Positions 9,486-29,331 of a DNA stretch of 32,000 nucleotides are shown here, piece by piece. The notes under the pieces are model-generated. The model ran no database searches. It was not told the origin of the DNA and saw nothing but the letters and a program-made list of their open reading frames with translations. Position 1 is the stretch's first letter. Each line of letters begins with the position of its first letter. A program made the position numbers and the translations under genes. The DNA is from Thermofilum adornatum (GTDB lineage: Archaea; Thermoproteota; Thermoprotei; Thermofilales; Thermofilaceae), in the NCBI RefSeq assembly GCF_000446015.1, contig NC_022093.1, positions 180,001-212,000 on the forward strand, read 5' to 3'.

Positions 9486-10496
9486 CTAGAACTCTTCTAC
9501 TGCCTCAACCCTCATCTTTGTTACCTCCTCTAGTGCCTCTGCCTTCTCATAAAATCGATCGAAATCAACTTCCTCGTGCATGTAGCCGTTTATCTTCACG
9601 ACGAGTTTATCGTTAGCCATCTCAGTTCCCACATATATCCCTTCACCCTTGTAGGCATTCTTAAAGGAGTCTGCAAGACGCACCGTAGCCGCAATGACTA
9701 GAGCCTTGACTCCCATTGAGGCAAGCTCTTGATCCTCTGTAATTCTGGTCTTCCTCCTGTGATACAAGATGGTCTTTGAGACAATGTCCAAGTCTACTTT
9801 GTCTCCTAGAAAACCAGTTTTCTTAACGTATTCGGCCCCAATAATGTGGTGGTCTTCCTCTCGTCCCCATACACGTCCAATATCATGCAGGAGACCCGCA
9901 ACATAGGTGTTTAGCCTGTCTTGAGCGGTGAAGCGGTACTTGTCCTGAAGAGCATCTAGTACGTCGAGAGCAACACCTGCAACTGTTGAGGCATGGTCAA
10001 GGTAGCCCCAATAGCCAGTCTTTTCGACTTCTTCAAGTAACCTCTTCAGGAATGGCAGATCAGTTATTTTGATGGCGCGGAAGAACCACCTGAGAGCTAG
10101 ACCTTGTGATATTGTTTCGTTAACGTAGCCAAGCGACCTGAGCCTTCCCAGAATCGTGTTGGGCGACGCATTGTCTCTCAGTGCCAGAAGCATACCCACC
10201 GTGCTACCACTCCTCCCAATCCCGCCATAGCAGTGGATCAAGACTCCTTTCCCACTGCGCAGGGCCTCCAAGGCTGGGAGCACGGCCTTGTAGAGTACGC
10301 CCTCGAAAGCCCTAAACGAAAAGTCAGGTATGGGGTAGCTGATTTTCTCTACTGTGCTGGGCAACTCATATTTACACTCGTTCTCAGTTAAATCTACAAC
10401 AAGGCCTAGCCCCCTCTTTGCTAGTTGCCTTAGAGTCTCCGTGTCCGGGCACGAGGACCAGTAGAGACCACCATTCAGGTCGCGTAGCCGAGCCAT
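9486..10496 (-). CDS. Fusion protein: dual-specificity/tyrosine phosphatase domain plus HD-domain phosphohydrolase
   Basis: 336 aa ORF. The N-terminal half has the P-loop HCYGGIGRSGS (HCx5R[ST]). The C-terminal half has H...LLHDIGR...HH...H, the HD signature. Confidence 0.75.
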   Translation of the reverse strand: MARLRDLNGGLYWSSCPDTETLRQLAKRGLGLVVDLTENECKYELPSTVEKISYPIPDFSFRAFEGVLYKAVLPALEALRSGKGVLIHCYGGIGRSGSTVGMLLALRDNASPNTILGRLRSLGYVNETISQGLALRWFFRAIKITDLPFLKRLLEEVEKTGYWGYLDHASTVAGVALDVLDALQDKYRFTAQDRLNTYVAGLLHDIGRVWGREEDHHIIGAEYVKKTGFLGDKVDLDIVSKTILYHRRKTRITEDQELASMGVKALVIAATVRLADSFKNAYKGEGIYVGTEMANDKLVVKINGYMHEEVDFDRFYEKAEALEEVTKMRVEAVEEF

Positions 10497-10576
10497 AGTC
10501 CTTCTCCACCATCAAAGTTTATACTGTTATTGATTACGGCGCTAAAAATTTGTATATGCATGTTGCATGTTAAACG

Positions 10577-11968
10577 ATGCATGAAGACATAGCCCAGATT
10601 CTATTTGAAAAAGCGGGCCACCTGGGAGCCAGTTTTGCCGAGGTAAGATTTGAGGACACGACTAGAGAGTTCATCTCCTATGTAAACGGACGCATCACTT
10701 CTCTCGGGAACCAGAAGACCAAGGGTGCAAGTATAAGAGTGATCTACGAGGGGGGACTTGGATTCGCCTCGACATACGACTTGAGCAGAGACGGTCTTCT
10801 CAAGGCCTTGGAAGAGGCCGTAAAAATTGCTAGATCCCTCTCTGGCTCTGGCAAAAAACTAGCGACAGTAGAGCCATACAAGAAGAGCTTCAAGATTGAA
10901 AACGTGAAGAACCACCCCTCCCAAGCAGAATTAACTGAAAAAATTGGGCTTGTAAAGAGGATATACAGCTACCTAAGCGAGAGAAAGGTGTCCTCTTCTA
11001 TAGCGAGGTACGGCTCCTACTATGGCGTTATAGAGGTCTACACAAGCGACGGGCTACACGTGTCAGCAGAGAGGCTCGTGACAGGAATATCTGCAACCGC
11101 CGTAATCAGGGAAAATGGCAAAGTAGGAGACAGCACAGAAACCTACGGCGCGTCGCTTGGACTGGAGGCTTTTACAGGCGAAAACTCCCCTGAAAACATA
11201 GCCGAGAAGGCCTACGAGAACGCAAGGCTAGCATTAAAGGCATCGCGGCCCCCTGCAGGCCTCCAGACAGTAATCACTCGTCCAGAGCTCACGGGCGTCT
11301 TTGCGCACGAGAGCTTTGGACACCTAACAGAGGGCGACGGCATATTTGCTGGTTCAAGCCCCCTGGTAGGAAGACTTGGCGAAAAATTGGCCAGCGAGCA
11401 AGTTACGATTGTCGATTCTGGCTACGACGAGAGGGGAGGCTACGTGTTTCTCGCAGACGACGAGGGGGTACCCACTAGGAGAACGGTCCTGGTCGAGAAG
11501 GGAATACTTAAGGGCTACCTGCATAGCAGGGAAAGCGCTGCACTCACTGGTATGGAGCCTACGGGAAACGGGAGGGCCCAAAGTTTTGAGCATGACGTTA
11601 TTGTTAGGATGAGGAATACCTTCTTTGAGGCTGGCAACTGGAAAGAAGAAGAGATAATTGCCGACACAAAGAACGGGCTTCTACTAGACAAGCCGGCCGG
11701 TGGACAGGTCGAGGAAGACGGCACCTTCACATTTAACGCTAGGATAGGATTCATAATAGAGAATGGGGAGATAAAGGAACCAGTTAGGGACGTTGTCCTT
11801 GCAGGCAACATACTTGAAATGCTGAGATATATCGACGCTGTAGGCAAAAACGTTGAAATATCTACGAGCCCCTTCGGTGGCTGTGGAAAATGGGGCCAAT
11901 GGGTGCACGTCGGCGATGGTGGTCCTACGCTTAGAGTATCCAGGCTTCTTGTGGGTGGTGAAAAATGA
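10577..11968 (+). CDS. tldD: TldD-family metalloprotease
   Basis: 463 aa ORF with the HESFGH (HExxxH) motif, a GGxxE-rich C-terminal region, and an ATGA overlap with the pmbA-like gene. Confidence 0.9.
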   Translation: MHEDIAQILFEKAGHLGASFAEVRFEDTTREFISYVNGRITSLGNQKTKGASIRVIYEGGLGFASTYDLSRDGLLKALEEAVKIARSLSGSGKKLATVEPYKKSFKIENVKNHPSQAELTEKIGLVKRIYSYLSERKVSSSIARYGSYYGVIEVYTSDGLHVSAERLVTGISATAVIRENGKVGDSTETYGASLGLEAFTGENSPENIAEKAYENARLALKASRPPAGLQTVITRPELTGVFAHESFGHLTEGDGIFAGSSPLVGRLGEKLASEQVTIVDSGYDERGGYVFLADDEGVPTRRTVLVEKGILKGYLHSRESAALTGMEPTGNGRAQSFEHDVIVRMRNTFFEAGNWKEEEIIADTKNGLLLDKPAGGQVEEDGTFTFNARIGFIIENGEIKEPVRDVVLAGNILEMLRYIDAVGKNVEISTSPFGGCGKWGQWVHVGDGGPTLRVSRLLVGGEK

Positions 11969-15340: not shown

Positions 15341-15781
15341 ATGACGAGTCCTGGTGAGCCGCGGATAAATAAAGAGTACGTTCTCAGCGTAGTAGCAGAA
15401 GCCAGGGACTCTATATCATTTGTAAAGAAAGTTTCCCAGAAGCCTTTCGATTCTCTGTCAGATGCTGAGAAATATGCTATAAGGTATCACTTAATTATAA
15501 TTGCAGAGGCTTTAGCATCAATAGCTCTTCACCTCTGCAGAAACATGTTAAGTCAGAGACCAGAAACTCCGTCGCATGCTGTCAGACTCCTTGCTGACAA
15601 TAACATTATCCCTGGCGAAGTTGCCGAAGACATTTTGAGATTTCTGAGAATGAGAAACCTGCTTGTACACAGGTACTGGACTGTTGACGACAGGAAAATC
15701 TATGAGAACATTAAGAGCGACTTTAATTCTATAGAGAATTTTCTAGAGGTGGTTCTCGAAATTGTCAGAGGAGAGATATAG
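15341..15781 (+). CDS. hepT: HepT-like HEPN (DUF86) toxin
   Basis: 146 aa ORF with the Rx4HxY motif as RNLLVHRY, adjacent to a minimal nucleotidyltransferase. Confidence 0.8.
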   Translation: MTSPGEPRINKEYVLSVVAEARDSISFVKKVSQKPFDSLSDAEKYAIRYHLIIIAEALASIALHLCRNMLSQRPETPSHAVRLLADNNIIPGEVAEDILRFLRMRNLLVHRYWTVDDRKIYENIKSDFNSIENFLEVVLEIVRGEI

Positions 15782-15791
15782 ATACTATACA

Positions 15792-16178
15792 ATGTCTGAA
15801 GAAGAGAGAAAAAAAGTCCTAGACAGACTCAGAGAGATTCTAGCTAAACACGGCGTCGAGCTAGCAATTGTCTTTGGGAGCTTTACATATGCAGAAGAGT
15901 TCAGAGACATCGATATAGCTGTGTATTCAAAAAAGATGACCTTCCAAGACCTGCTAAGGCTTGGAGTAGACCTCGAGCTAGAGCTGGGATTGCCAGTTGA
16001 TGTTGCCCCTCTAGACCAGCTCCCTCCAAGATTCCGGCTTAACGTCCTATTAAGAGGCATAGTCCTGCTAGAAAAACCTGGGCTCTACGAGTGCCTCTAC
16101 ATGCAGACCCAGGACGAACTTATGCAAGCCGAGACCTCAACGAAAAGACAAAGGTTAACAGACACACTGAGGGTCTAA
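15792..16178 (+). CDS. mntA: Minimal nucleotidyltransferase (MNT) antitoxin
   Basis: The ORF track gives 15762..16178, but I prefer the ATG at 15792 (MSEEERKKVL). It has the GS...DxD motif as GSFTYAEEFRDIDIAV. Gene order here is hepT then mnt. Confidence 0.8.
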   Translation: MSEEERKKVLDRLREILAKHGVELAIVFGSFTYAEEFRDIDIAVYSKKMTFQDLLRLGVDLELELGLPVDVAPLDQLPPRFRLNVLLRGIVLLEKPGLYECLYMQTQDELMQAETSTKRQRLTDTLRV

Positions 16179-17114: not shown

Positions 17115-17579
17115 GTGAACATAGTGGGCACGAGTAAATACGTGCCTCAAAAGAAAGAGACGCCAACTGTTGGCCACCCTACTCTGAACCCCGAAATCAA
17201 GAAGCACCTAGACCTGGCGCTAAGCTTCCTCGAGGAAGGCAAAAGCTTCGTAGAGAAGAATCCTGTCCAAGCCTCTGAAAAACTCTACAAAGCCGCAGTA
17301 GAGTCTGTAAAGCTACTTGCCCTCTACCTAGGCGTCTCGGATGTGCTCGCACAAGTAAGGCAGAGAAACAGGTGGACAGTAACAGACCTCGAAAAAGCTG
17401 TCGAAGCAATTAGCCAGAAACTGGGAGACTGGTTCATGGCCTCCTGGGACACTGCATGGGCGCTTCACGTCTGGGGGTTCCACGAGGCAAAATTCGACTC
17501 AGAAGCAGTTAAGATTAGGCTACCTTACATTGAGAAAATAGTCGAGGAAGCAAAGAAAATAGTATCTGGGGAGGAATAG
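17115..17579 (+). CDS. PaREP1-family protein
   Basis: 154 aa ORF with a GTG start. The pattern LEEGKSFVEKNPVQASEKLYKAAVESVKLLA ... WALHVWGFHEAKF matches my recollection of the crenarchaeal PaREP1 family. Confidence 0.65.
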   Translation: MNIVGTSKYVPQKKETPTVGHPTLNPEIKKHLDLALSFLEEGKSFVEKNPVQASEKLYKAAVESVKLLALYLGVSDVLAQVRQRNRWTVTDLEKAVEAISQKLGDWFMASWDTAWALHVWGFHEAKFDSEAVKIRLPYIEKIVEEAKKIVSGEE

Positions 17580-17601
17580 ACAGTTGTCTTAAGCTAGACA
17601 T

Positions 17602-18135
17602 CTAGAAGGATCCTTTATGTTTCAAGGAGACTAGAGAGCACACTTTGTCCGCTAGCTCCTCGACACTCTCGTAGAACCTCAGCTCCGCCAGCCTCCTCGA
17701 ATCAACGTATGGCTCATAGACCCTCATCTTGTCTGACGAGAGGCCCGTCCCTCCCAAGACAAATACGGGCTTGCCTTCTAAATATGCGGTAACAATCTCC
17801 ATAATCGTGCCGGCCTCCCCGCCCACAGCGACCAACACGTCCGCCGTCCTAACGAGCACGACACTTCTACCCCTAAAACCCATGCCAGTCCTTACAACTA
17901 TGGCTCCCTCTGGGAAACTCTCGTCCTCCCGCTCTAGTGGCGGGAAAATAAGGACACCCAAGCCCCTCCCCAAAGCCTCGTCGACAACAACCCTCATGAG
18001 GCCCCAGTAGCCACCAACAGCAACTACGAGGCTTGTTCCACACCTCTCAGCCAGCAGGCCTACAAGCCTCCTAGCCTTATCCGCAAGGCCGGCAGGGGCT
18101 TCCGTCCCCAGTGCGGCTATCCCCACGACCTTCAC
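17602..18135 (-). CDS. TIGR00725-family (LOG/SLOG-like Rossmann) protein
   Basis: 177 aa ORF with VVAVGGYWGLMRVVVDEA and VAVGGEAGTIMEI...GKPVFVL, the paired GG motifs of the LOG/TIGR00725 clade. Confidence 0.75.
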   Translation of the reverse strand: MKVVGIAALGTEAPAGLADKARRLVGLLAERCGTSLVVAVGGYWGLMRVVVDEALGRGLGVLIFPPLEREDESFPEGAIVVRTGMGFRGRSVVLVRTADVLVAVGGEAGTIMEIVTAYLEGKPVFVLGGTGLSSDKMRVYEPYVDSRRLAELRFYESVEELADKVCSLVSLKHKGSF

Positions 18136-19105: not shown

Positions 19106-19123
19106 GAAAAATTGAACTAAATT
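19106..19123 (+). promoter_or_regulatory. Shared promoter-proximal motif copy A (GAAAAATTGAACTAAATT) abutting a TATA-like box
   Basis: This 18-mer is identical to the reverse complement of 26949-26966 and matches 25519-25536 at 17/18 positions. It is followed by TCTTTTAAAC (19124-19133) and then the ORF start at 19156 (GTG) or 19165 (ATG). Confidence 0.6.
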
Positions 19124-19155
19124 TCTTTTAAACCCGCAAGACATTCTCTTTCTCG

Positions 19156-19398
19156 GTGAGACACATGGCTGGCAACATAAAGCTAGAAATAACATTCGGG
19201 AACAGTGACCCCCTCAAAGTACAGATACAGGACGGGCAACCCCTCGAGCTACTCCTAGAAAACAATAGCGACGCCACTGTAAGTTACGAAGTGTTACTCA
19301 AAAAGCTAGAGGGGTACCTGACCTATACAATACTCAAACTAGAGCTGGACGGTAAGACGGCCTACCTGGCAGAAGCACAAAGCCGGGAAAAATACTAG
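19156..19398 (+). CDS. Hypothetical small beta-rich protein (possibly truncated by a frameshift)
   Basis: 80 aa ORF behind the motif-bearing promoter. A protein-like reading frame continues in the -1 frame to 19562 (see findings). Confidence 0.5.
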   Translation: MRHMAGNIKLEITFGNSDPLKVQIQDGQPLELLLENNSDATVSYEVLLKKLEGYLTYTILKLELDGKTAYLAEAQSREKY

Positions 19399-19568
19399 AA
19401 AAAGCCCTGCCGCCACGCCAAAGCACGACCCTAAGGCTTAGCGTCCTCTCCCCAAAGACAGTCGAAGACAGCGCAGAGATATCAATAGAGGTAAATGCAA
19501 AACCAGTAGTCGTTCCAAGCGTCCCCATAACAATATTTGAAGAAGTAGAAATAGAGAACTAGAAAAAA

Positions 19569-21350: not shown

Positions 21351-21764
21351 TTAACTCTTCTTGTAGACCTGTAGGATTATGAGTTTTGGATAGTCTTTTC
21401 CGCTAGCAGTGTGAAGCTTTATCTCGAGACTAACACCAGGAGTAACAGTAAATTGAGAAGGGGCGTTCTGGAAATACAGAATTAGTGGTGTCTGATTGCC
21501 AGGTTTTAGAGGTATTGGGAAGTTGACGTCTGTGCCACTAACTTTCACCTTTAACCCTGTTGCACTAGATGGAAAAACATTTACGTATATGTCTGTTATT
21601 GTTGCAGTGGATGTTCCAGTGTTCTGAACAATGACGTAGATGCCGTTAGTGTCATCGTATATAGATGTTATTTGGAGCTGCTCGAAGCCCGTGAAGAGCC
21701 CAACGATTCCTGTCATCCAGAAGGCTACCGCTATCGCCACTGCGATTGCAACGCGCGCTACCAC
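21351..21764 (-). pseudogene. Archaeal type IV pilin-like gene, N-terminally damaged paralogue
   Basis: This is a paralogue of 22821..23294. The in-frame ORF can only start at a GTG within the hydrophobic helix (VVARVAIAVAIAVAFWMTG) and lacks the basic-Gly processing site. An ATG-CGT-GGT (M-R-G) lies at 21767-21759 but out of frame, consistent with a non-3n deletion of the signal-peptide region. Confidence 0.6.
21583..21748. repeat. 166-bp near-identical segment shared by the two pilin paralogues (copy 1)
   Basis: Matches 23071-23236 at a constant offset of 1488 bp, with 2 mismatches (21586, 21631). Homology breaks abruptly at 21749. Confidence 0.9.
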
Positions 21765-22471: not shown

Positions 22472-22531
22472 CAGGGTCAGCTACGGCCGCTCTCCTCACC
22501 GCTCAGCGACGGAATTGCACATCATCAAAGC
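22472..22531 (-). ncRNA. Candidate C/D box sRNA, paralogue of the 18.6 kb locus
   Basis: The reverse strand reads ttTGATGA-(15 nt, or TGATGT + 12 nt)-CTGA-gcgg-TGAGGA-(12 nt)-CTGA. That is C 22522-22527, D' 22503-22506, C' 22493-22498 and D 22477-22480. The 18-nt core CTGAGCGGTGAGGAGAGC is identical to the 18.6 kb locus while the guide spacers differ. Confidence 0.45.
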
Positions 22532-22820: not shown

Positions 22821-23294
22821 TTATCCGCCAGTTCGATATGCCTGTAGGACTATTAGCTTGGGATAGTCTTTACCACCAGCTGTGTGCAGCTTTATCTCAA
22901 GGCTAACGCCTGGCCGAACTGTAAAGGGAGGATTATTCAAAGTGATGTGTAGAGTCGCTGACGAACCTGCTGGAAATGTTATTCCACCAGTTGCTAAGTC
23001 ACCCTGCACGTTGCCTTGAATATTTTGTAATTCAACCTGTAATCCGACCTGAGTGCTGGGGAGCCCGTTCACGAATATGTCTGTTATTGTTGCAGTGGAT
23101 GTTCCAGTGTTCTGAACAGTGACGTAGATGCCGTTAGTGTCATCGTATATAGATGTTATTTGGAGCTGCTCGAAGCCCGTGAAGAGCCCAACGATTCCTG
23201 TCATCCAGAAGGCTACCGCTATCGCCACTGCGATTGTGACTGCAACGATGATGACGGTCGCTATTACGGGGCTTATACCCCTTCTTTTCTGCAT
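22821..23294 (-). CDS. Archaeal type IV pilin-like protein (class III signal peptide)
   Basis: 157 aa ORF. MQKRRG/ISPVIATVIIVAVTIAVAIAVAFW is a basic-Gly prepilin peptidase site followed by a hydrophobic helix, then a beta-rich domain. A CTTTATAAGG box lies about 35 nt upstream. Confidence 0.8.
   Translation of the reverse strand: MQKRRGISPVIATVIIVAVTIAVAIAVAFWMTGIVGLFTGFEQLQITSIYDDTNGIYVTVQNTGTSTATITDIFVNGLPSTQVGLQVELQNIQGNVQGDLATGGITFPAGSSATLHITLNNPPFTVRPGVSLEIKLHTAGGKDYPKLIVLQAYRTGG
23071..23236. repeat. 166-bp near-identical segment shared by the two pilin paralogues (copy 2)
   Basis: Matches 21583-21748 with 2 mismatches. Confidence 0.9.
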
Positions 23295-23871: not shown

Positions 23872-23948
23872 AGCCCGGTGGTGTAGCGGCCAAGCATGGC
23901 GGGCTTTGGACCCGCAGATCCGGGGTTCGAATCCCCGCCGGGCTACCA
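23872..23948 (+). tRNA. tRNA-Gln: tRNA-Gln (anticodon UUG), CCA encoded
   Basis: Folded by hand: acceptor AGCCCGG/CCGGGCT, anticodon stem GCGGG/CCCGC, loop CTTTGGA (anticodon TTG), T arm CGGGG-TTCGAAT-CCCCG, discriminator A, then CCA. The A1-U72 pair is typical of archaeal tRNA-Gln. No intron. Confidence 0.93.
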
Positions 23949-23999: not shown

Positions 24000-24362
24000 C
24001 TATGGAACGTTTACAAACAAGCTGTACTCTTTTCCCGTAGATGTGACAAACGTTACTTGTAGTGTCTGCGCGCTGGTCTCTGTTTCTAGGGTGTGAGTGG
24101 AGGTTTCTCCGGGATTTATGGTTGCCTGGAATTCTAGAGGCTGGCCGTTTATCTTTGCAAGTATGATCGTAGCGGGCTTTGTTCCCCTGTTTTTGATGTA
24201 TGCCGTGACTGTGACTTTTGTGCCTTGGCGCTGTGCCTGTAGCTTTATGTCTAGGAGCTCTATGTCTGTGTGCATAGTGGCGATGTTGCTCAGCCAGAAG
24301 ACTGCAGCTATAGAAACAGCGATTACGACAGCGATTATAATCAGGTTCTCGAAGGTTTCCAT
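24000..24362 (-). CDS. Pilin-like membrane-anchored protein lacking a canonical processing site
   Basis: 120 aa ORF. It starts METFENLIIIAVVIAVSIAAVFWL, followed by a beta-rich domain with the same layout as the pilin paralogues (..V.V...N.G...ATI....NG.P...PG.S....T..GK.Y). There is no basic-Gly motif, and an in-frame stop lies directly upstream of the ATG. Confidence 0.6.
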   Translation of the reverse strand: METFENLIIIAVVIAVSIAAVFWLSNIATMHTDIELLDIKLQAQRQGTKVTVTAYIKNRGTKPATIILAKINGQPLEFQATINPGETSTHTLETETSAQTLQVTFVTSTGKEYSLFVNVP

Positions 24363-24551: not shown

Positions 24552-24923
24552 CTAGTGTGTTGTTTCTAGTTTTTTCTTTATGTCTCTTAGTGTGTATAGT
24601 AGTACTCCTAGACGTGTATCTTTGTTGAATAGGACTGCTAGGTATCCTATTTGGCCTAGCCTTGTGTAAATTATCCCCGAGCCGTCTGGGGCGTTGACTG
24701 TTATCCATTCCGCCTCGCCCTTTCCCAGCTCCGTGCTAGCCCTGTTGCCCACCTCGCTCAACACAGCCGTCAAAGCGGCGACCTTCTCCTCCAGCTCCTT
24801 GTCAGCAAGACTACTAAACAACGGCAAACCATCACTACTCGAAACAACAAACCCCTCAACACCACCAACCCTGGCCACACCTTCAACAACACGCCTAACC
24901 TCCTCAACACTCATCCCGACCAC
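24552..24923 (-). CDS. Roadblock/LC7 (MglB-like) domain protein
   Basis: 123 aa ORF. The pattern VGGVEGFVVSSSDGLPLFS...AALTAVL...G..I.....GYLAVLF..DTRLG is typical of Robl_LC7. The start lies 3 nt after the stop of the upstream globin-like gene. Confidence 0.8.
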   Translation of the reverse strand: MVGMSVEEVRRVVEGVARVGGVEGFVVSSSDGLPLFSSLADKELEEKVAALTAVLSEVGNRASTELGKGEAEWITVNAPDGSGIIYTRLGQIGYLAVLFNKDTRLGVLLYTLRDIKKKLETTH

Positions 24924-24926
24924 CCC

Positions 24927-25490
24927 TTACTTTACGCCTAGCTCTTTCATTATGTCTTTTAGTGTGACTGCCTGTAGCCTCTTGTAGACTCCCTCGTTTA
25001 TCCCTAGGACTTTGTCGAAGAGCCTCTGCCTCATGACGTCGTAGCCGAGGACGATTATCCTCAGGCTCCAGTGGACAGACTTGAGGACGGGGGCAAGGTA
25101 TGGGCTGTCCTTGGGGATACGGCTTATAACTTGATGCGTGACGAACGCGAGCTTCGATAGTAGTGTCGGCAAGGGTATCCCGGCACCCGCAAAGGTGAAG
25201 CCCATCTTCGAGATAGCCATGCAGTGATCCATGTCATAGTTGCCGTAAAAGATGGCTGTCATCCATTGCCCGAGCATCGCCTTCACGTTGTCTAGCCCTA
25301 GACTCTGCAAGAGGTTTGCCCCTTCGGGATCCTTCTGCAACCCCTCAATAATCTCTGCCACGATTTTGTCCTTCTGTGGAAGCACAAACTGCGACGCCTC
25401 GCGGAGCCTCTGCTTGTCCTCCTCGCCTAGACCCACGTATCGGGAGATCTCTGCACAGCCCTTTGAAATTAGATCCTGCATATGGGTCAA
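24927..25490 (-). CDS. Protoglobin/globin-coupled-sensor-like domain protein, apparently without the proximal His
   Basis: 187 aa ORF. It matches the protoglobin layout: YVGLGEEDKQRLREA..., ...AEIIEGL..DPE...L, ...GNYDMDH..., SKMGFTFAGAGIPLPTLL. At the position of the RIGxxHxRIGL histidine it has F. Confidence 0.7.
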   Translation of the reverse strand: MTHMQDLISKGCAEISRYVGLGEEDKQRLREASQFVLPQKDKIVAEIIEGLQKDPEGANLLQSLGLDNVKAMLGQWMTAIFYGNYDMDHCMAISKMGFTFAGAGIPLPTLLSKLAFVTHQVISRIPKDSPYLAPVLKSVHWSLRIIVLGYDVMRQRLFDKVLGINEGVYKRLQAVTLKDIMKELGVK

Positions 25491-25518
25491 GCCGGTAGCG
25501 GACCCTTGGTTTATAAAA

Positions 25519-25536
25519 AATTTAGTTCAATTTTTG
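25519..25536 (-). promoter_or_regulatory. Shared promoter-proximal motif copy C (CAAAAATTGAACTAAATT on the reverse strand)
   Basis: Matches copies A and B at 17/18 positions. It abuts the TTTTTATAAA box (25510-19), and the start codon at 25490 is about 20 nt downstream. Confidence 0.6.
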
Positions 25537-25688
25537 ATGAGCATTTCTCTCTTTTATTTTTAAAAATTATACTTTTCCTTCTCATGATAAAACTACAATA
25601 TATCAATAAAATTTTTGCAGAATAAAAGTTGCATAAATCATTGAATTGATATAAAGGCTTTATCAAAATAGGAGCCCCTAGAATATGA

Positions 25689-26273
25689 CTATCTTAGCTC
25701 TTGGGATATTTCCTGGGCGAGCTCCCTAGCATATATCCTTATCAGCCTATTATACACGTCCTCGTTTATCCCCGTCGCCCTCTCGAAGATCCTCTGTCTC
25801 ACAACCTCGTAGCCAAGCATAACAACAGTCAGGTTCCACCTCAAAGCCTTCAACACGACTGGGAAAAGATGGCCGGCTACTACATGCCTCGAAATAACCT
25901 CCGTCACAGTAGCAAGCTTCGCGAGGACAAAGCCTGGAGGCAAGCCGTGGGCGGCAAGCGTCAAGCCTATCTTTGACACCTCTAGACACATTTTTTCACC
26001 ATAGTCCCCCTGAAAAGCCGCAACGAGCCAGCCCCTAAGCATGCCCTCCAACGCTTCCCTAGTGAGCCCAGCCTCCTGAAAGATCCTGGCCGCCTCGGGG
26101 TCACGGAAAAGCTCCCCAAGTATCTCGCCGACAATCTCTCCGCCCTTTTCGATGACGCCATGCGAGGCCTTGTGCAGGAGCTCTACCTCGGCCTGTCCCA
26201 TCCCAAGAAACTCTGCTATCTGGCTACAGTTATTTGCTAGAATCTCCCTTAAAGGAGCCCTATGGTTAGGCAT
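25689..26273 (-). CDS. Protoglobin/globin-coupled-sensor-like domain protein, paralogue 2
   Basis: 194 aa paralogue of 24927..25490 (FLGMGQAEVELLHKA..., GDYGEKMCLEVSKIGLTLAAHGLPPGFVL). It has a His three residues away from the canonical F8 position. Confidence 0.7.
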   Translation of the reverse strand: MPNHRAPLREILANNCSQIAEFLGMGQAEVELLHKASHGVIEKGGEIVGEILGELFRDPEAARIFQEAGLTREALEGMLRGWLVAAFQGDYGEKMCLEVSKIGLTLAAHGLPPGFVLAKLATVTEVISRHVVAGHLFPVVLKALRWNLTVVMLGYEVVRQRIFERATGINEDVYNRLIRIYARELAQEISQELR

Positions 26274-26373
26274 GGTTATTCCACCCTTGATACCTATATC
26301 CTTCCAAATATTTGTTGTTTTTATGAATAAAAAATCTATGTAGCCAACATAACCAAAAGCCTAAGGAAACTGG

Positions 26374-26916
26374 CTACTTCGCCTGGGGCCTCGACTCCTG
26401 TCTCTTCTTTGTTTCTGCCTTTTTCTTAGCAATTGGATATGCAAATATGCACTGGCCGTCTTCCTGCTTTGCTGGCATTTCTCCTCTCTCCATGTCGTAT
26501 CTCTCCTTTAGCTTGAGCAGACCTAGCCCTTCTAGGTAGCCCTTAACGAAGCCTATTAATGGGCATGCAGTCAAAGGCGACTCCAGCCCACCCGTGTCCC
26601 TCGGGCATATCCTGCAAGACTCCCTGTCAAGCCTCACCTCCACGCTACCCCCTCTCTGCTCGACCACTAGCTCGTCTGTAAAGCCCATTAAGTCGTTGAG
26701 GAACTGTAATGCCTCCTCTGCGCTCTCAAAGCTCAGCCCGTGGACCGAGACGTACTCAGCCATACAGCGGCCAGTATGCTCCGAGGCCTCCCTTAACACG
26801 TTTAGACCTAGTACACCTGTTTCCATTAGCCTTGCCAGCATACATGCAATATACACGTGGTACGCGTTTGCATTTACCTTTAAGGCCCTCTCAACGTCCC
26901 ACGCCATCTTCATCAC
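26374..26916 (-). CDS. V4R (4-vinyl reductase-like) domain protein with a basic C-terminal tail
   Basis: 180 aa ORF. ESCRICPRDTGGLESPLTACPLIGFVKGYLEGLG resembles the CxxC...C.P..G...G core of V4R domains. The K/R-rich tail is KKKAETKKRQESRPQAK. Confidence 0.65.
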   Translation of the reverse strand: MMKMAWDVERALKVNANAYHVYIACMLARLMETGVLGLNVLREASEHTGRCMAEYVSVHGLSFESAEEALQFLNDLMGFTDELVVEQRGGSVEVRLDRESCRICPRDTGGLESPLTACPLIGFVKGYLEGLGLLKLKERYDMERGEMPAKQEDGQCIFAYPIAKKKAETKKRQESRPQAK

Positions 26917-26948
26917 GGGGCAACAAACGAGGAGGACGCCTTATAAGG

Positions 26949-26966
26949 AATTTAGTTCAATTTTTC
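26949..26966 (-). promoter_or_regulatory. Shared promoter-proximal motif copy B (GAAAAATTGAACTAAATT on the reverse strand)
   Basis: Exact reverse complement of 19106-19123. It abuts the CCTTATAAGG box (26939-48), and the V4R start at 26916 is 22 nt downstream. Confidence 0.6.
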
Positions 26967-27255: not shown

Positions 27256-27433
27256 ATTTAACAAGCAAATCTTCAACACAACATTTCAAAAAGCCTAGCG
27301 AAACATGGATCAGCCCAATGTCTCTACAACCACAGGGGATAGCCACACAGCCCTCCATGCGGAACCATGGACAAAAATACGTGAGCATATTTATTTAGCC
27401 ACGTTACAATATATTGGGAGAAAGTGGATCGGC

Positions 27434-28426
27434 ATGGAGGCTAGAGCCAGGCAGGAAAAATATATACCGATGAGGCTGGTAACGAGGGAAGAGTACCTAG
27501 AATACATCAAGACACATAGAACCGTACGCATAGAGGACGAGGAGATCCCCATTGGGAAACCCCACAGGATCGAGAAGTACGCGCCAGACGACTCCGCCCT
27601 CGAGACCACGACCGTGTGGTCCTTCCCGGACAGGGGCGACTGGGCAACGCACAGGGGCGACTATAGGGGGAACTGGGCCCCACAGATACCGAGAAACCTC
27701 ATACTTAGATACAGCAGGCCCGGGGAGACAGTCCTCGACCAGATGTGTGGAAGCGGGACAACACTAGTCGAAAGCAAGCTCCTTGGGAGAAACGCCATAG
27801 GCGTAGACATAAACTACGAGGCAGTCATGCTCACCATGGACCGTCTCAACTTCAGCTATAGGCCCCTCGACCCAGACTACAGGGAGCCAGAGATAAGGGT
27901 CTATCATGGCGACGCCCGGAACCTGAACCTCATCGAAGATGAATCCATAGACCTTATAGCGACTCATCCTCCCTACGCAAACATAATCTCGTACTCTAAA
28001 GCCAAGAGAATTGAGGGAGACCTATCACAAGTCTACAGCCTGGAGGAGTACCTGCAGGGAATAAGGGAAGTAGCCAAGGAGAGCTTCAGAGTCCTGAAGC
28101 CCGGCAGGTACTGCGCGATACTCATAGGCGACACCAGGAGGCACAGGCACTACGTACCCATAGCATTCAGAGTCATGCAACAGTTTCTCGAGGTTGGATT
28201 CATACTGAGGGAAGACATCATCAAGATACAGTGGAACACAAAGACAACCGAAAAGAAGTGGGCCCGGCTAGCGAAGACAAGCGAAGAAAACTGGATAGAC
28301 AAGCCAGAAAACAAAAAACACTGGACAGACTTCTACCTAATAGCACATGAGCACTTATTCGTTTTTAGAAAGCCAGCCGAAGGCGAGGACATAGAAAAGT
28401 ACAGAGACAGCATGAAGTGGTGGTGA
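27434..28426 (+). CDS. Type II DNA methyltransferase (N6-adenine or N4-cytosine), motif I before motif IV
   Basis: The ORF track gives 27305..28426. The first 43 codons lie in the stop-free low-complexity region, so I prefer the ATG at 27434 (an ATATTTATTTA box lies about 40 nt upstream). It has the SAM motif VLDQMCGSGTT and the catalytic-type motif DLIATHPPY. Its end overlaps the endonuclease start by 10 nt. Confidence 0.85.
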   Translation: MEARARQEKYIPMRLVTREEYLEYIKTHRTVRIEDEEIPIGKPHRIEKYAPDDSALETTTVWSFPDRGDWATHRGDYRGNWAPQIPRNLILRYSRPGETVLDQMCGSGTTLVESKLLGRNAIGVDINYEAVMLTMDRLNFSYRPLDPDYREPEIRVYHGDARNLNLIEDESIDLIATHPPYANIISYSKAKRIEGDLSQVYSLEEYLQGIREVAKESFRVLKPGRYCAILIGDTRRHRHYVPIAFRVMQQFLEVGFILREDIIKIQWNTKTTEKKWARLAKTSEENWIDKPENKKHWTDFYLIAHEHLFVFRKPAEGEDIEKYRDSMKWW

Positions 28427-29331
28427 AACTGGTAAGATACCAGCTCCTAGGCTTCAATACAGAGGAAGAGTATCTAAAGCATTTCCTAGACACACTCCTC
28501 GAGACAAACTGGACATACGAATACTTCGTGGACTGGGACAAGGTCAGAAGCAACGTAAAGAGCTATGTCAAGGAAATCTGCCTCCTAAACGCCTTGACAA
28601 AGATAGAAAAAGAGAAAAGAGAAAGCGAGCTCAAAGATATATTCCTAAGATACCCCGAAACAATCAAGGTCATACCCCTACTTATCGCTGTCCGAGAAAA
28701 CAGCATACCCATCCTAGAGATAAGCGAAAAAGCCATCTACAAAGTATTTGACTTTAAAGAACGCAAGCTAAGCCCCAAAGAAGCCGAGGAGCTCGTCCAC
28801 TTCTGCAGGAACATAGGCATCTTAGACCTTTTCGCGGAAATAAGTGACCTATACGCCTACCTACTAGGAGTAGAAGTCGGACTAGACACAAATGCGCGAA
28901 AAAACCGTAGCGGGAAGATATTCGAGAACTTGGTCGAGTTGCTACTAAATAGGAAACTAGCAGGAATCAAAGACCTTAGGATTAAAAAGAACGACAAGAG
29001 CGTTAAAATTTCTAGGAGCAAGAACGCTGACTTTGTCATATACTATAAGGGAGAACCCAAAGTAATCATCGAATGCAGTTTTTACAGCGAAACAGGAAGC
29101 AAACCCATCGAAACGGCAAACTCATACATAGACCTACAAAAGAAAATCCAACAAAAGAACATATACTTCATCTGGATAACCGACGGCAGGGCATGGAAAT
29201 CAATGGAAAACACAATCAACCAAGTCGCCAAGGAAATCGACTTCCTATTGAACTACAACATTGCCAGCGAAAAAATAGACAAGCTAATCGAGCACATTTT
29301 ATCTGACAAGAACAATTCTCGACAGCCCTAG
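28417..29331 (+). CDS. DpnII/MboI-family type II restriction endonuclease (probably GATC-specific)
   Basis: 304 aa ORF with a GTG start. The blocks YPETIKVIPLLIAVR, GVEVGLDTNARKNRSG, SFYSETGSKPIETANSY and WITDGRAW match my recollection of conserved DpnII blocks. Confidence 0.85.
   Translation: MVVKLVRYQLLGFNTEEEYLKHFLDTLLETNWTYEYFVDWDKVRSNVKSYVKEICLLNALTKIEKEKRESELKDIFLRYPETIKVIPLLIAVRENSIPILEISEKAIYKVFDFKERKLSPKEAEELVHFCRNIGILDLFAEISDLYAYLLGVEVGLDTNARKNRSGKIFENLVELLLNRKLAGIKDLRIKKNDKSVKISRSKNADFVIYYKGEPKVIIECSFYSETGSKPIETANSYIDLQKKIQQKNIYFIWITDGRAWKSMENTINQVAKEIDFLLNYNIASEKIDKLIEHILSDKNNSRQP

Follow-up and report, generated by a model that had tools for sequence, protein, structure and literature searches.

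The closest described relative of the gene cluster treated here is HGbRL of Methylacidiphilum infernorum, a globin-Roadblock/LC7 fusion that has been crystallised (PDB 3WFW/3WFX), and its authors have proposed that the globin changes conformation and passes this change on to the Roadblock domain (PMC4476040). The cluster lies in a stretch of 32,000 nucleotides from the genome of the thermoproteote Thermofilum adornatum (contig NC_022093.1, positions 180,001 to 212,000; the whole stretch is hereafter called the window, and positions are counted from its first letter). It consists of four consecutive reverse-strand genes that encode a V4R-like protein, two globins (hereafter G1 and G2) and a Roadblock/LC7 protein. 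The cluster resembles HGbRL in having a putative globin input and Roadblock output, in coming from a thermophile, and in having no adjacent GTPase and no assigned downstream partner. In HGbRL the globin and Roadblock parts form one polypeptide, but in the cluster they are encoded by separate genes 12 nt apart. The HGbRL globin is a haem globin of the FHb/HGbI type with His F8 and Tyr B10, whereas those of the cluster are of the globin-coupled sensor (GCS)/protoglobin type and lack both residues. HGbRL is also bacterial (Verrucomicrobia) and has no V4R-like partner, while the cluster comes from the Thermoproteota. Judged from its sequence, the cluster is a split version of the globin-Roadblock sensor, built on predicted haem-less sensor globins and extended by a V4R/Bet3-like partner.

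Other described systems share parts of this arrangement. The GCS and protoglobin proteins (HemAT, GsGCS, AfGcHK, MaPgb and 8H17) have the same fold and Pfam family as G1 and G2, the same R/K-I-G-x-x-[F8] block and a C-terminal helix that continues helix H. G1 and G2 differ from these in lacking the F8 His, the B10 Tyr and a linked output domain, and in carrying the residues W146, Y155 and R176. RsbR-type stressosome globins have likewise lost the proximal His and form a haem-free sensory module in a multiprotein assembly, but the cluster has no STAS domain, no RsbS/RsbT neighbours and no Rsbr_N match (Pfam, window). Because G1 and G2 group with the GCS/protoglobin proteins by both sequence and structure, their loss of the His is independent. 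MglA/MglB and the actinobacterial conservons (CvnA-D) likewise include a Roadblock protein with a sensor component, and CvnB5 (3LEQ) is a detectable relative. The cluster locus differs in having no GTPase, DUF742 protein or sensor kinase, and fits the category of 'orphan MglB'. The V4R sensors (the N-terminal domains of PoxR and DmpR), TRAPP Bet3/TRAPPC3 and 7YH3 may, to judge from the medium-confidence predicted model, share a two-layer alpha/beta fold with the V4R-like protein. The Cys4 pattern of PoxR and Thorarchaeota TRAPPC3 is alike, and paired small residues (G-x3-G) lie in the counterparts of helices alpha2 and alpha5. Unlike the V4R sensors, the V4R-like protein belongs to PF27343 and is stand-alone or globin-fused rather than joined to AAA+/helix-turn-helix parts, and unlike TRAPP, its cluster has no known TRAPP-like longin partners.

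A preliminary description, made from the DNA sequence alone, had known of no system that combines these three folds. The published globin-Roadblock protein HGbRL qualifies that statement, while no paper in the literature searched describes the trio that includes the V4R-like protein. In the same literature there was no paper on a protoglobin combined with Roadblock, and nothing on MJ0207 or Tlr1989. A 2021 survey recognises non-haem globins in three families, with no mention of Roadblock or V4R (PMC8717448), and Podar et al. (2008) give no neighbourhood data. With moderate confidence, the cluster is read here as encoding a haem-independent cytoplasmic sensory/adaptor complex of stand-alone domains with Roadblock as its output. 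Gene neighbourhoods were compared by exact-protein look-ups and hidden Markov model (HMM) scans in 18 related loci, which are referred to below by L numbers.

Gene content of the cluster

All four reverse-strand open reading frames (ORFs) of the preliminary description are present (Table 1), and the proteins match GenBank entries of T. adornatum exactly. The V4R-like protein is 100% identical to AGT34633.1, and G1, G2 and the Roadblock protein match AGT34632.1, AGT34631.1 and AGT34630.1 exactly when their likely true starts are used. All four are labelled hypothetical in GenBank. Other public databases label the individual genes 'protoglobin/globin-sensor domain', 'Roadblock/LAMTOR2' and '4-vinyl reductase 4VR domain'. 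The V4R-like gene starts at 26913 in GenBank, and its homologues point to the ATG at 26907 (MAWDV...). The likely true start of G2 is the ATG at 25481 (184 aa) and that of the Roadblock gene the ATG at 24914 (120 aa). The Roadblock gene had been described as starting 3 nt after G2; it probably starts instead 12 nt past the G2 stop codon.

Fold and haem-ligand positions of the globins

Both globins score above the Pfam gathering threshold for Protoglobin (PF11563, cutoff 25), G1 at 1.9e-12 and 47.9 bits and G2 at 6.6e-12 and 46.1 bits. They are paralogs with 37% identity (E=8e-46), as had been proposed. The predicted model of G1 (predicted local distance difference test, pLDDT, 89.8) resembled the sensor-globin domains of 8H17, 2W31, AfGcHK, HemAT, BpeGReg, MaPgb and ApPgb in Foldseek searches (TM up to 0.83; TMt 0.62-0.83 for 8H17, 2W31, 5OHF, 1OR4 and 3ZJH), with one extra C-terminal helix formed by residues 171-193.

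The F8 and B10 positions were placed by a profile of 14 family members aligned to 2W31 and 8H17. The block K/R-I-G-L-T-[L/F]-A-A-x-G-L aligns with KIGHAHVRVGL in the Geobacter GCS (2W31) and with KIGLVHVRIGI in the T. elongatus protein (8H17), so that the F8 His of these structures sits opposite Leu106 in G1 and a Phe in G2. His109 of G1, three residues beyond F8, varies between H, Y, R and A in the family, which is without any invariant His. The earlier reading by eye, that both proteins lack the F8 His and that the His of G1 is shifted by three residues, was therefore correct. The distal B9-B10 'FY' pair of canonical GCS proteins is replaced by Ile-Leu in G1 (B10 = Leu52) and by Ile-Ile in G2. 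On these alignments the canonical haem ligands are lost in G1 and G2; that the proteins are haem-free and sensory is what we infer. Cys96 of G1 is specific to the clade, and the corresponding Cys is kept in G2.

When 1.84 billion representatives were searched exhaustively with the profile, 89 matches were obtained, in three tiers. The first tier is the His-less clade, with L, F or Y at F8, an aliphatic residue at B10 and a near-invariant Cys 10 residues upstream. The second contains stand-alone proteins of about 190 aa in which the F8 His is kept and the Tyr at B10 is already gone, and the third contains the canonical multidomain GCS proteins with both the FY pair and the His. Among the 89 representatives, the F8 His is missing only in the clade closest to G1 and G2, nearly all members of which have Cys96 (one member, P0050/P0118, has Thr). 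The C-terminal signature W146/Y155/R176 is common to the His-less clade and the His-containing tier of about 190 aa.

A third globin paralog of 210 aa, P0116 (L009:8001-8633 and L014:1794-2426), carries both the F8 His and the clade-specific Cys (HCLEVARIGLAH). Its gene adjoins one for a 2-hydroxyacid dehydrogenase and precedes the globin-Roadblock unit by a few kb. From its sequence, P0116 may be a haem-binding intermediate form, and the presence of both residues suggests a transition series from His only, through His and Cys, to Cys only. The globins also differ in their C-terminal tails. That of G1 (NRLIRIYARELAQEISQELR, window 25689-25760) resembles the tails of the distant P0116, P0032 and L010 types. 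G2 (24927-24990) and all single-copy globins have a different tail, KRLQAV.LK.IMKELGVK, directly upstream of the Roadblock gene. The two tail types suggest past recombination between paralogs, or that the tail matters for coupling to Roadblock.

The Roadblock protein and its conserved neighbourhood

The assignment of the last gene product to Roadblock/LC7 held, with a score above the Pfam gathering threshold (Robl_LC7, PF03259; 1.5e-11, 44.3 bits, cutoff 23). Its relatives in the PDB are the Roadblock structures 7F8M (1.1e-12), 9JUE_D (8.5e-9), 7F8F and CvnB5 3LEQ (3.6e-3). A second Roadblock protein of 124 aa, belonging to the same 90% cluster, is encoded elsewhere in the genome of T. adornatum strain 1505 (TCARB_1039 vs TCARB_1320), which suggests that the Roadblock component may be duplicated outside the cluster locus.

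The preliminary description had remarked that Roadblock/LC7 proteins normally partner a small MglA/Ras-like GTPase but that the window encodes no GTPase, kinase, methyl-accepting chemotaxis protein or DNA-binding output domain. Pfam searches of window ORFs of at least 110 aa agreed, finding no GTPase, histidine kinase or methyl-accepting chemotaxis protein, although small DNA-binding proteins were not exhaustively excluded. No cognate small GTPase was found within about four genes, either among window ORFs or among the called genes of related loci. This absence is common, however: 328 of 749 MglB homologues (44%) are orphans without an adjacent GTPase, none of which had been characterised (PMC4316618).

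An adjacency confined to this genome would have spoken against a module. The globin-to-Roadblock adjacency recurs instead in eight contexts, at identities down to about 28% (L012) and with a gap between called genes of about 10-15 nt, and a fusion of the V4R-like protein to the globin occurs in addition. The flanks of these contexts differ and include DpnII restriction-modification genes, aminotransferase/ribosomal genes, Rad50-Mre11, TauE and toxin-antitoxin genes. In the window, the V4R-like gene is followed by G1, the G2-Roadblock pair and a pilin-like gene. L001 and L002 have the V4R-like gene, a single globin with Roadblock and the pilin-like gene; L004 has the same start followed by aminotransferase and ribosomal genes. 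Two globins are found in L008 (V4R-like, G1 with an in-frame TAG, G2-Roadblock, Rad50/Mre11), in L009 (toxin-antitoxin, G1, G2-Roadblock, Rad50/Mre11) and in L012 (TauE, globin, globin-Roadblock), the last two without a V4R-like gene. In L014-16, two globin pseudogenes precede the V4R-like gene and a globin-Roadblock pair. In L011, the V4R-like::globin fusion is followed by Roadblock and the pilin-like gene. Such fusions form two separate 90% clusters, P0114 (3 members) and P0115 (4 members), and their joint is the segment that forms the basic tail of the window V4R-like protein. V4R-like genes at 52-54% identity stand alone in L005-L007.

The globin part thus occurs as one globin, two globins or a fusion. 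The G1 and G2 types are each about 90% conserved in L008 and L009 (G2 orthologues 91-93%), and where a locus has one globin, that protein shares about 70% identity with G1 and about 44% with G2; together these values indicate that the duplication is old. A recent tandem duplication of G1 and G2 was rejected, given their 37% identity and the retention of both types at about 90% in these two loci.

Since both V4R-like genes and globin genes can be found on their own, the core is considered to be the globin or globins plus Roadblock, with the V4R-like protein a frequent, linkable accessory. The four-gene module proposed at first therefore stands as to its globin-Roadblock core and needs correction as to the rest, since the V4R-like gene is dispensable and two globins are only one variant. 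In profile searches of genome contigs, the globin alignment found no relative, and the V4R-like alignment found one Thermofilales metagenome-assembled genome only, with a solo gene. The distribution so far is narrow, comprising Thermofilum and close relatives from hot-spring metagenomes, although these searches sample species-representative genomes poorly.

The V4R-like protein

The first gene had been described as encoding a V4R-domain protein. None of 11 family members matched Pfam V4R (PF02830) or Bet3 (PF04051) at E<=10, and the precomputed annotation of the protein cluster containing the window protein, and of all homologues, is PF27343 (MJ0207). The UniRef name of the protein is '4-vinyl reductase 4VR domain-containing'. 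A family profile found no solved relative by sequence in the PDB. The AlphaFold model is of medium confidence (pLDDT 65.8), and Foldseek matched it to TRAPPC3/Bet3, Thorarchaeota TRAPPC3 (7YH3), H-NOX, BcsD/CeSD and YslB, with low TM-scores of 0.4-0.47. TRAPPC3, H-NOX and CeSD are among the reported structural neighbours of V4R/TRAPPC3 proteins (PMC10933270).

Four cysteines are invariant in the family alignment (C101-x2-C104, C118 and C156), in a pattern that corresponds to the Cys4 Zn site of PoxR and Thorarchaeota TRAPPC3 (PMC10933270); by analogy, the site probably binds Zn. The invariant pairs of small residues, G122-x3-G126 and G49-x3-A53, correspond to the paired-glycine motifs of V4R/Bet3 proteins (PMC2253512). 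Because the HMMs are unmatched but the fold neighbours, cysteines and glycines agree, the protein is best called a putative member of the V4R superfamily (Bet3/H-NOX-like) from the MJ0207 family, outside strict Pfam V4R. The original assignment thus survives at the level of motifs and probably of fold, and is replaced at the level of family. The basic C-terminal tail noted earlier is present in the ORF (KKKAETKKRQESRPQAK). A single-sequence match to smURFP (E ~3e-3) was gone in the profile search and was dismissed as chance.

Promoter element and transcription

A motif had been reported to be shared by two promoters of the cluster. This 15-mer, AAATTGAACTAAATT (also given as the TTGAACTAAATT element), has three exact copies in the window, compared with 0.10 expected, and it is kept in relatives. 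Upstream of the V4R-like gene, the element (26963-26949) is separated by 2 nt from a TATA-like TTATAA (26946-26941). The second copy (25533-25519), in the AT-rich G1-G2 spacer of 198 nt, is likewise 2 nt from a TTATAA (25516-25511), about 30 nt upstream of the G2 ATG. The element and its TATA box thus lie about 30-40 nt upstream of the likely V4R-like and G2 starts. Its core was found upstream of every V4R-like gene in L001-L005, L008, L011, L014-16 and L018, including the solo gene of L005, and the element also precedes the G2-type genes of L008 and L009. The third window copy (19109-19123, forward strand) is followed by a small beta-rich gene running from the ATG at 19166 to about 19563, which is frameshifted (an 80-aa ORF with a continuation in another frame). 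An intact 132-aa orthologue in L001 (10373-10771, reverse strand) has the same upstream element (span 10373-10824), and this small gene may, from its sequence, belong to the same regulon.

The Roadblock ATG is preceded by GGGGTG, and two T5 tracts come after the stop codon. Together with the short gap between G2 and Roadblock, these features fit a transcript of G2 and Roadblock that terminates ahead of the pilin-like gene. A pilin-like gene was said to follow on the same strand, in an argument for co-regulation. It does so in the window, but is syntenic only in L001, L002 and L011 and not in L004, L008, L009 or L012, and the T-tracts argue against co-transcription. Its inclusion in the operon was rejected on both grounds, and the pilin-like N186_01165 is probably a neighbour rather than part of the module.

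Selection

The ratio of nonsynonymous to synonymous substitution rates, calculated by the Nei-Gojobori method, was 0.02-0.11 for Roadblock, about 0.17-0.2 for the V4R-like gene, 0.29-0.39 for G1 and 0.22-0.32 for G2. Roadblock retains 95-99% amino acid identity across loci where the V4R-like protein and globins are only 63-70% identical. The pattern in these sequences is one of four maintained genes, with fast-evolving putative inputs and a nearly invariant adaptor.

Proposed mechanism and alternatives

In the proposed complex, one or two globins lacking His(F8) and Tyr(B10) and carrying the clade Cys would form a conserved core with the Roadblock/LC7 protein, G2 and Roadblock being co-transcribed from their own promoter. 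The V4R/Bet3-like protein, with its Cys4 (probably Zn) site, would dock onto the globin, to which it is covalently fused in some relatives, and would supply a second input, probably a small hydrophobic ligand. The globin and V4R-like proteins would make up the faster-evolving input side and Roadblock the nearly invariant output side. Roadblock would pass the state of the complex on to a conserved partner whose gene lies elsewhere; the analogy of MglB, CvnB and LAMTOR makes an NTPase or a small GTPase the most plausible candidate. The shared operator-like element just upstream of the TATA boxes would co-regulate the G2-Roadblock unit with the V4R-like gene.

Several observations weigh against this proposal. 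The V4R-superfamily label must be set against the unmatched Pfam models, the medium-confidence structure and the low TM-scores given above. The V4R-like gene is missing from L009 and L012 and alone in L005-L007, so that a three-way complex is not obligatory, and a distant His-less globin occurs without Roadblock in L010. Decayed copies are also present. An in-frame TAG replaces the invariant Glu60 in the G1 gene of L008 (4024-4620), two frameshifted globin pseudogenes lie upstream of the V4R-like gene in L014-L017 (L014:4387-5622), and L003 (5959-6448) and L018 (5887-6376) have a broken or truncated globin and no Roadblock. These copies indicate that the module is dispensable and turns over; on this sequence evidence, the globin paralogs show birth-and-death evolution. 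No output domain or partner was identified within the window by Pfam scans of ORFs, and the locus tags of the cluster are absent from the proteomics supplement of the T. adornatum species description. Haem binding through another residue may be compatible with the globin sequences.

An overlapping but unlikely alternative is that the Bet3-like and Roadblock proteins form a TRAPP- or Ragulator-like scaffold with guanine nucleotide exchange factor or GTPase-activating protein (GAP) function for an unlinked archaeal small GTPase, such as a crenarchaeal Rup/Arf-like protein, with the globins as regulators. What separates it from the sensory/adaptor complex is its claim that the output is control of GTPase nucleotide state. 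Roadblock/MglB proteins serve as GAPs or platforms for small GTPases (PMC4476040), TRAPP joins Bet3-family proteins with longin/roadblock-type subunits, and Asgard archaea encode both TRAPPC3-like and Roadblock proteins (PMC10933270). Group 2 Rup GTPases occur only in Crenarchaeota (PMC4316618), the V4R-like model finds TRAPP core subunits by Foldseek, and the extreme conservation of Roadblock implies a conserved partner. Against this, the window and all 18 related loci were found to encode no GTPase, orphans are frequent among MglB homologues (PMC4316618), and the V4R-like gene is dispensable in some loci. The more specific suggestion, that haem-less globins gate a Bet3-like and Roadblock complex which sets the nucleotide state, or the location, of an unlinked small GTPase, is given slightly less credence still.

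A thiol/redox or alternative-cofactor sensor is similarly doubtful as an explanation. The globins would then hold Cys-thiolate haem, another tetrapyrrole or a fatty acid, in the manner of non-haem globins of the RsbR or phycocyanin type, or Cys96 would act as a redox switch reporting oxidative stress. The near-invariance of Cys96 in the His-less clade and its rarity elsewhere favour such a role, as do the transition series suggested by P0116, the reported binding of bilins and potentially fatty acids by non-haem globins (PMC8717448), and the obligately anaerobic life of T. adornatum (PMC6965361). Cys96 lies, however, 10 residues N-terminal of F8 in the same predicted helix. By an estimate from helix geometry, it is about 15 A away from the canonical proximal site and not on the face of that site, which makes it unlikely that its thiolate ligates a haem in the canonical position. 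The Thr at this position in P0050/P0118 also weighs against this explanation, and the globins have no Pfam match to the Rsbr_N or phycobilisome families and only a weak structural match to phycocyanin (G1, TM 0.43).

It is quite improbable that the cluster is accessory 'island' cargo, that is, a conflict/defence or pilus regulatory cassette and no housekeeping sensor. The flanks are indeed rich in such genes (DpnII methylase and endonuclease; toxin-antitoxin genes of the PIN, MazE and HepT/MNT types; PaREP1; SLOG), and the locus is often duplicated, pseudogenised or rearranged. A pilin-like gene follows in four loci, and MglB controls the polarity of bacterial type IV pili (PMC4476040). The pilin neighbour is nevertheless absent from half of the contexts, none of five cluster proteins matched a PADLOC defence-system model at E<=0.1, and the module has no effector such as a nuclease, protease or pore. 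The strong purifying selection on Roadblock is also atypical for arms-race genes.

That the globins are ordinary haem protoglobins or O2/NO sensors, and Roadblock and the V4R-like protein chance neighbours, is hardly credible: Pfam and RefSeq label them 'protoglobin domain-containing' and strict anaerobes such as M. acetivorans have protoglobins, with structures among the fold matches, but two independent profile alignments show aliphatic or aromatic residues in place of the F8 His and the B10 Tyr, the Roadblock adjacency recurs in differing contexts, and globins are fused to the V4R-like protein.

Features of the surrounding window

A DpnII-type restriction-modification pair (27305-29331, forward strand) lies divergently beside the cluster and consists of a 373-aa N6/N4 methylase gene overlapping one for a 304-aa DpnII endonuclease. 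L001, L003 and L018 have this pair beside the cluster as well. Three paralogous pilin-like/CARDB-like small proteins are encoded on the reverse strand (21351-21764, 22821-23294 and 24000-24362). The N-terminus of the 157-aa protein, RG/ISPVIATVI, is that of a canonical archaeal type IV pilin (TIGR02537, 3.9e-7). The 120-aa protein (N186_01165), which has no basic-Gly cleavage motif, is paralogous to the type IV pilin-like ORF at 22821-23294. A tRNA-Gln gene (anticodon TTG; 23872-23948, forward) lies on the opposite strand between two pilin-like genes. A candidate C/D-box small RNA (22475-22529, reverse) matched Rfam sR47 below threshold (31 bits vs a gathering cutoff of 40; E=2.6e-4), and no structured RNA was found by Rfam inside the cluster. 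Island-like content at 1611-2030, 15341-16178 and 17115-18135 comprises a PIN toxin, HepT/MNT (HEPN-nucleotidyltransferase), PaREP1 and SLOG (LDcluster4) genes, several of which are common to L001.

Table 1 Coordinates of the cluster genes, copies of the promoter element and the adjoining pilin-like gene in the window.
Feature	Position	Strand	Evidence
Putative V4R-superfamily protein (PF27343 'MJ0207'), N186_01185	26374..26916	-	ORF, AGT34633.1 match, Foldseek, Cys4/Gly motifs
G1, His-less sensor-globin-like protein, 194 aa, N186_01180	25689..26273	-	Pfam Protoglobin, model, Foldseek
G2, His-less sensor-globin-like paralog, N186_01175	24927..25490	-	Pfam Protoglobin, AGT34631.1 match
Roadblock/LC7 protein (MglB-like), N186_01170	24552..24923	-	Pfam Robl_LC7, AGT34630.1 match, PDB relatives
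Promoter element upstream of V4R-like gene	26941..26963	-	Sequence reading, copy count, relatives
Promoter element, copy 2, G1-G2 spacer	25511..25533	-	Sequence reading, copy count, relatives
Pilin-like/CARDB-like protein, 120 aa, N186_01165	24000..24362	-	Weak CARDB and choice-of-anchor-D matches
Promoter element, copy 3, and small frameshifted gene	19109..19563	+	Copy count, intact L001 orthologue

Implications

The narrow distribution and evident dispensability of the module limit how far the finding extends. Both the stand-alone V4R-like proteins of archaea and the Roadblock/MglB orphans are nevertheless widespread, and they have repeatedly been invoked for the origin of eukaryotic trafficking and GTPase platforms. 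Prokaryotic V4R proteins have been described as having no clear function. With small, linked and thermostable partners, a natural fusion, a probably co-transcribed pair and a shared promoter element, the cluster would make interaction, ligand and output directly testable. Within the sensor-globin (protoglobin/GCS) lineage, the haem ligands were lost independently, which adds to the three recognised non-haem globin families. Were the GTPase-controlling version true, a Bet3-like/Roadblock complex of TACK archaea would represent, in prokaryotes, a functional equivalent of TRAPP/Ragulator-type platforms, and a first function would be assigned to 'orphan' archaeal Roadblock proteins and to stand-alone V4R-like proteins.

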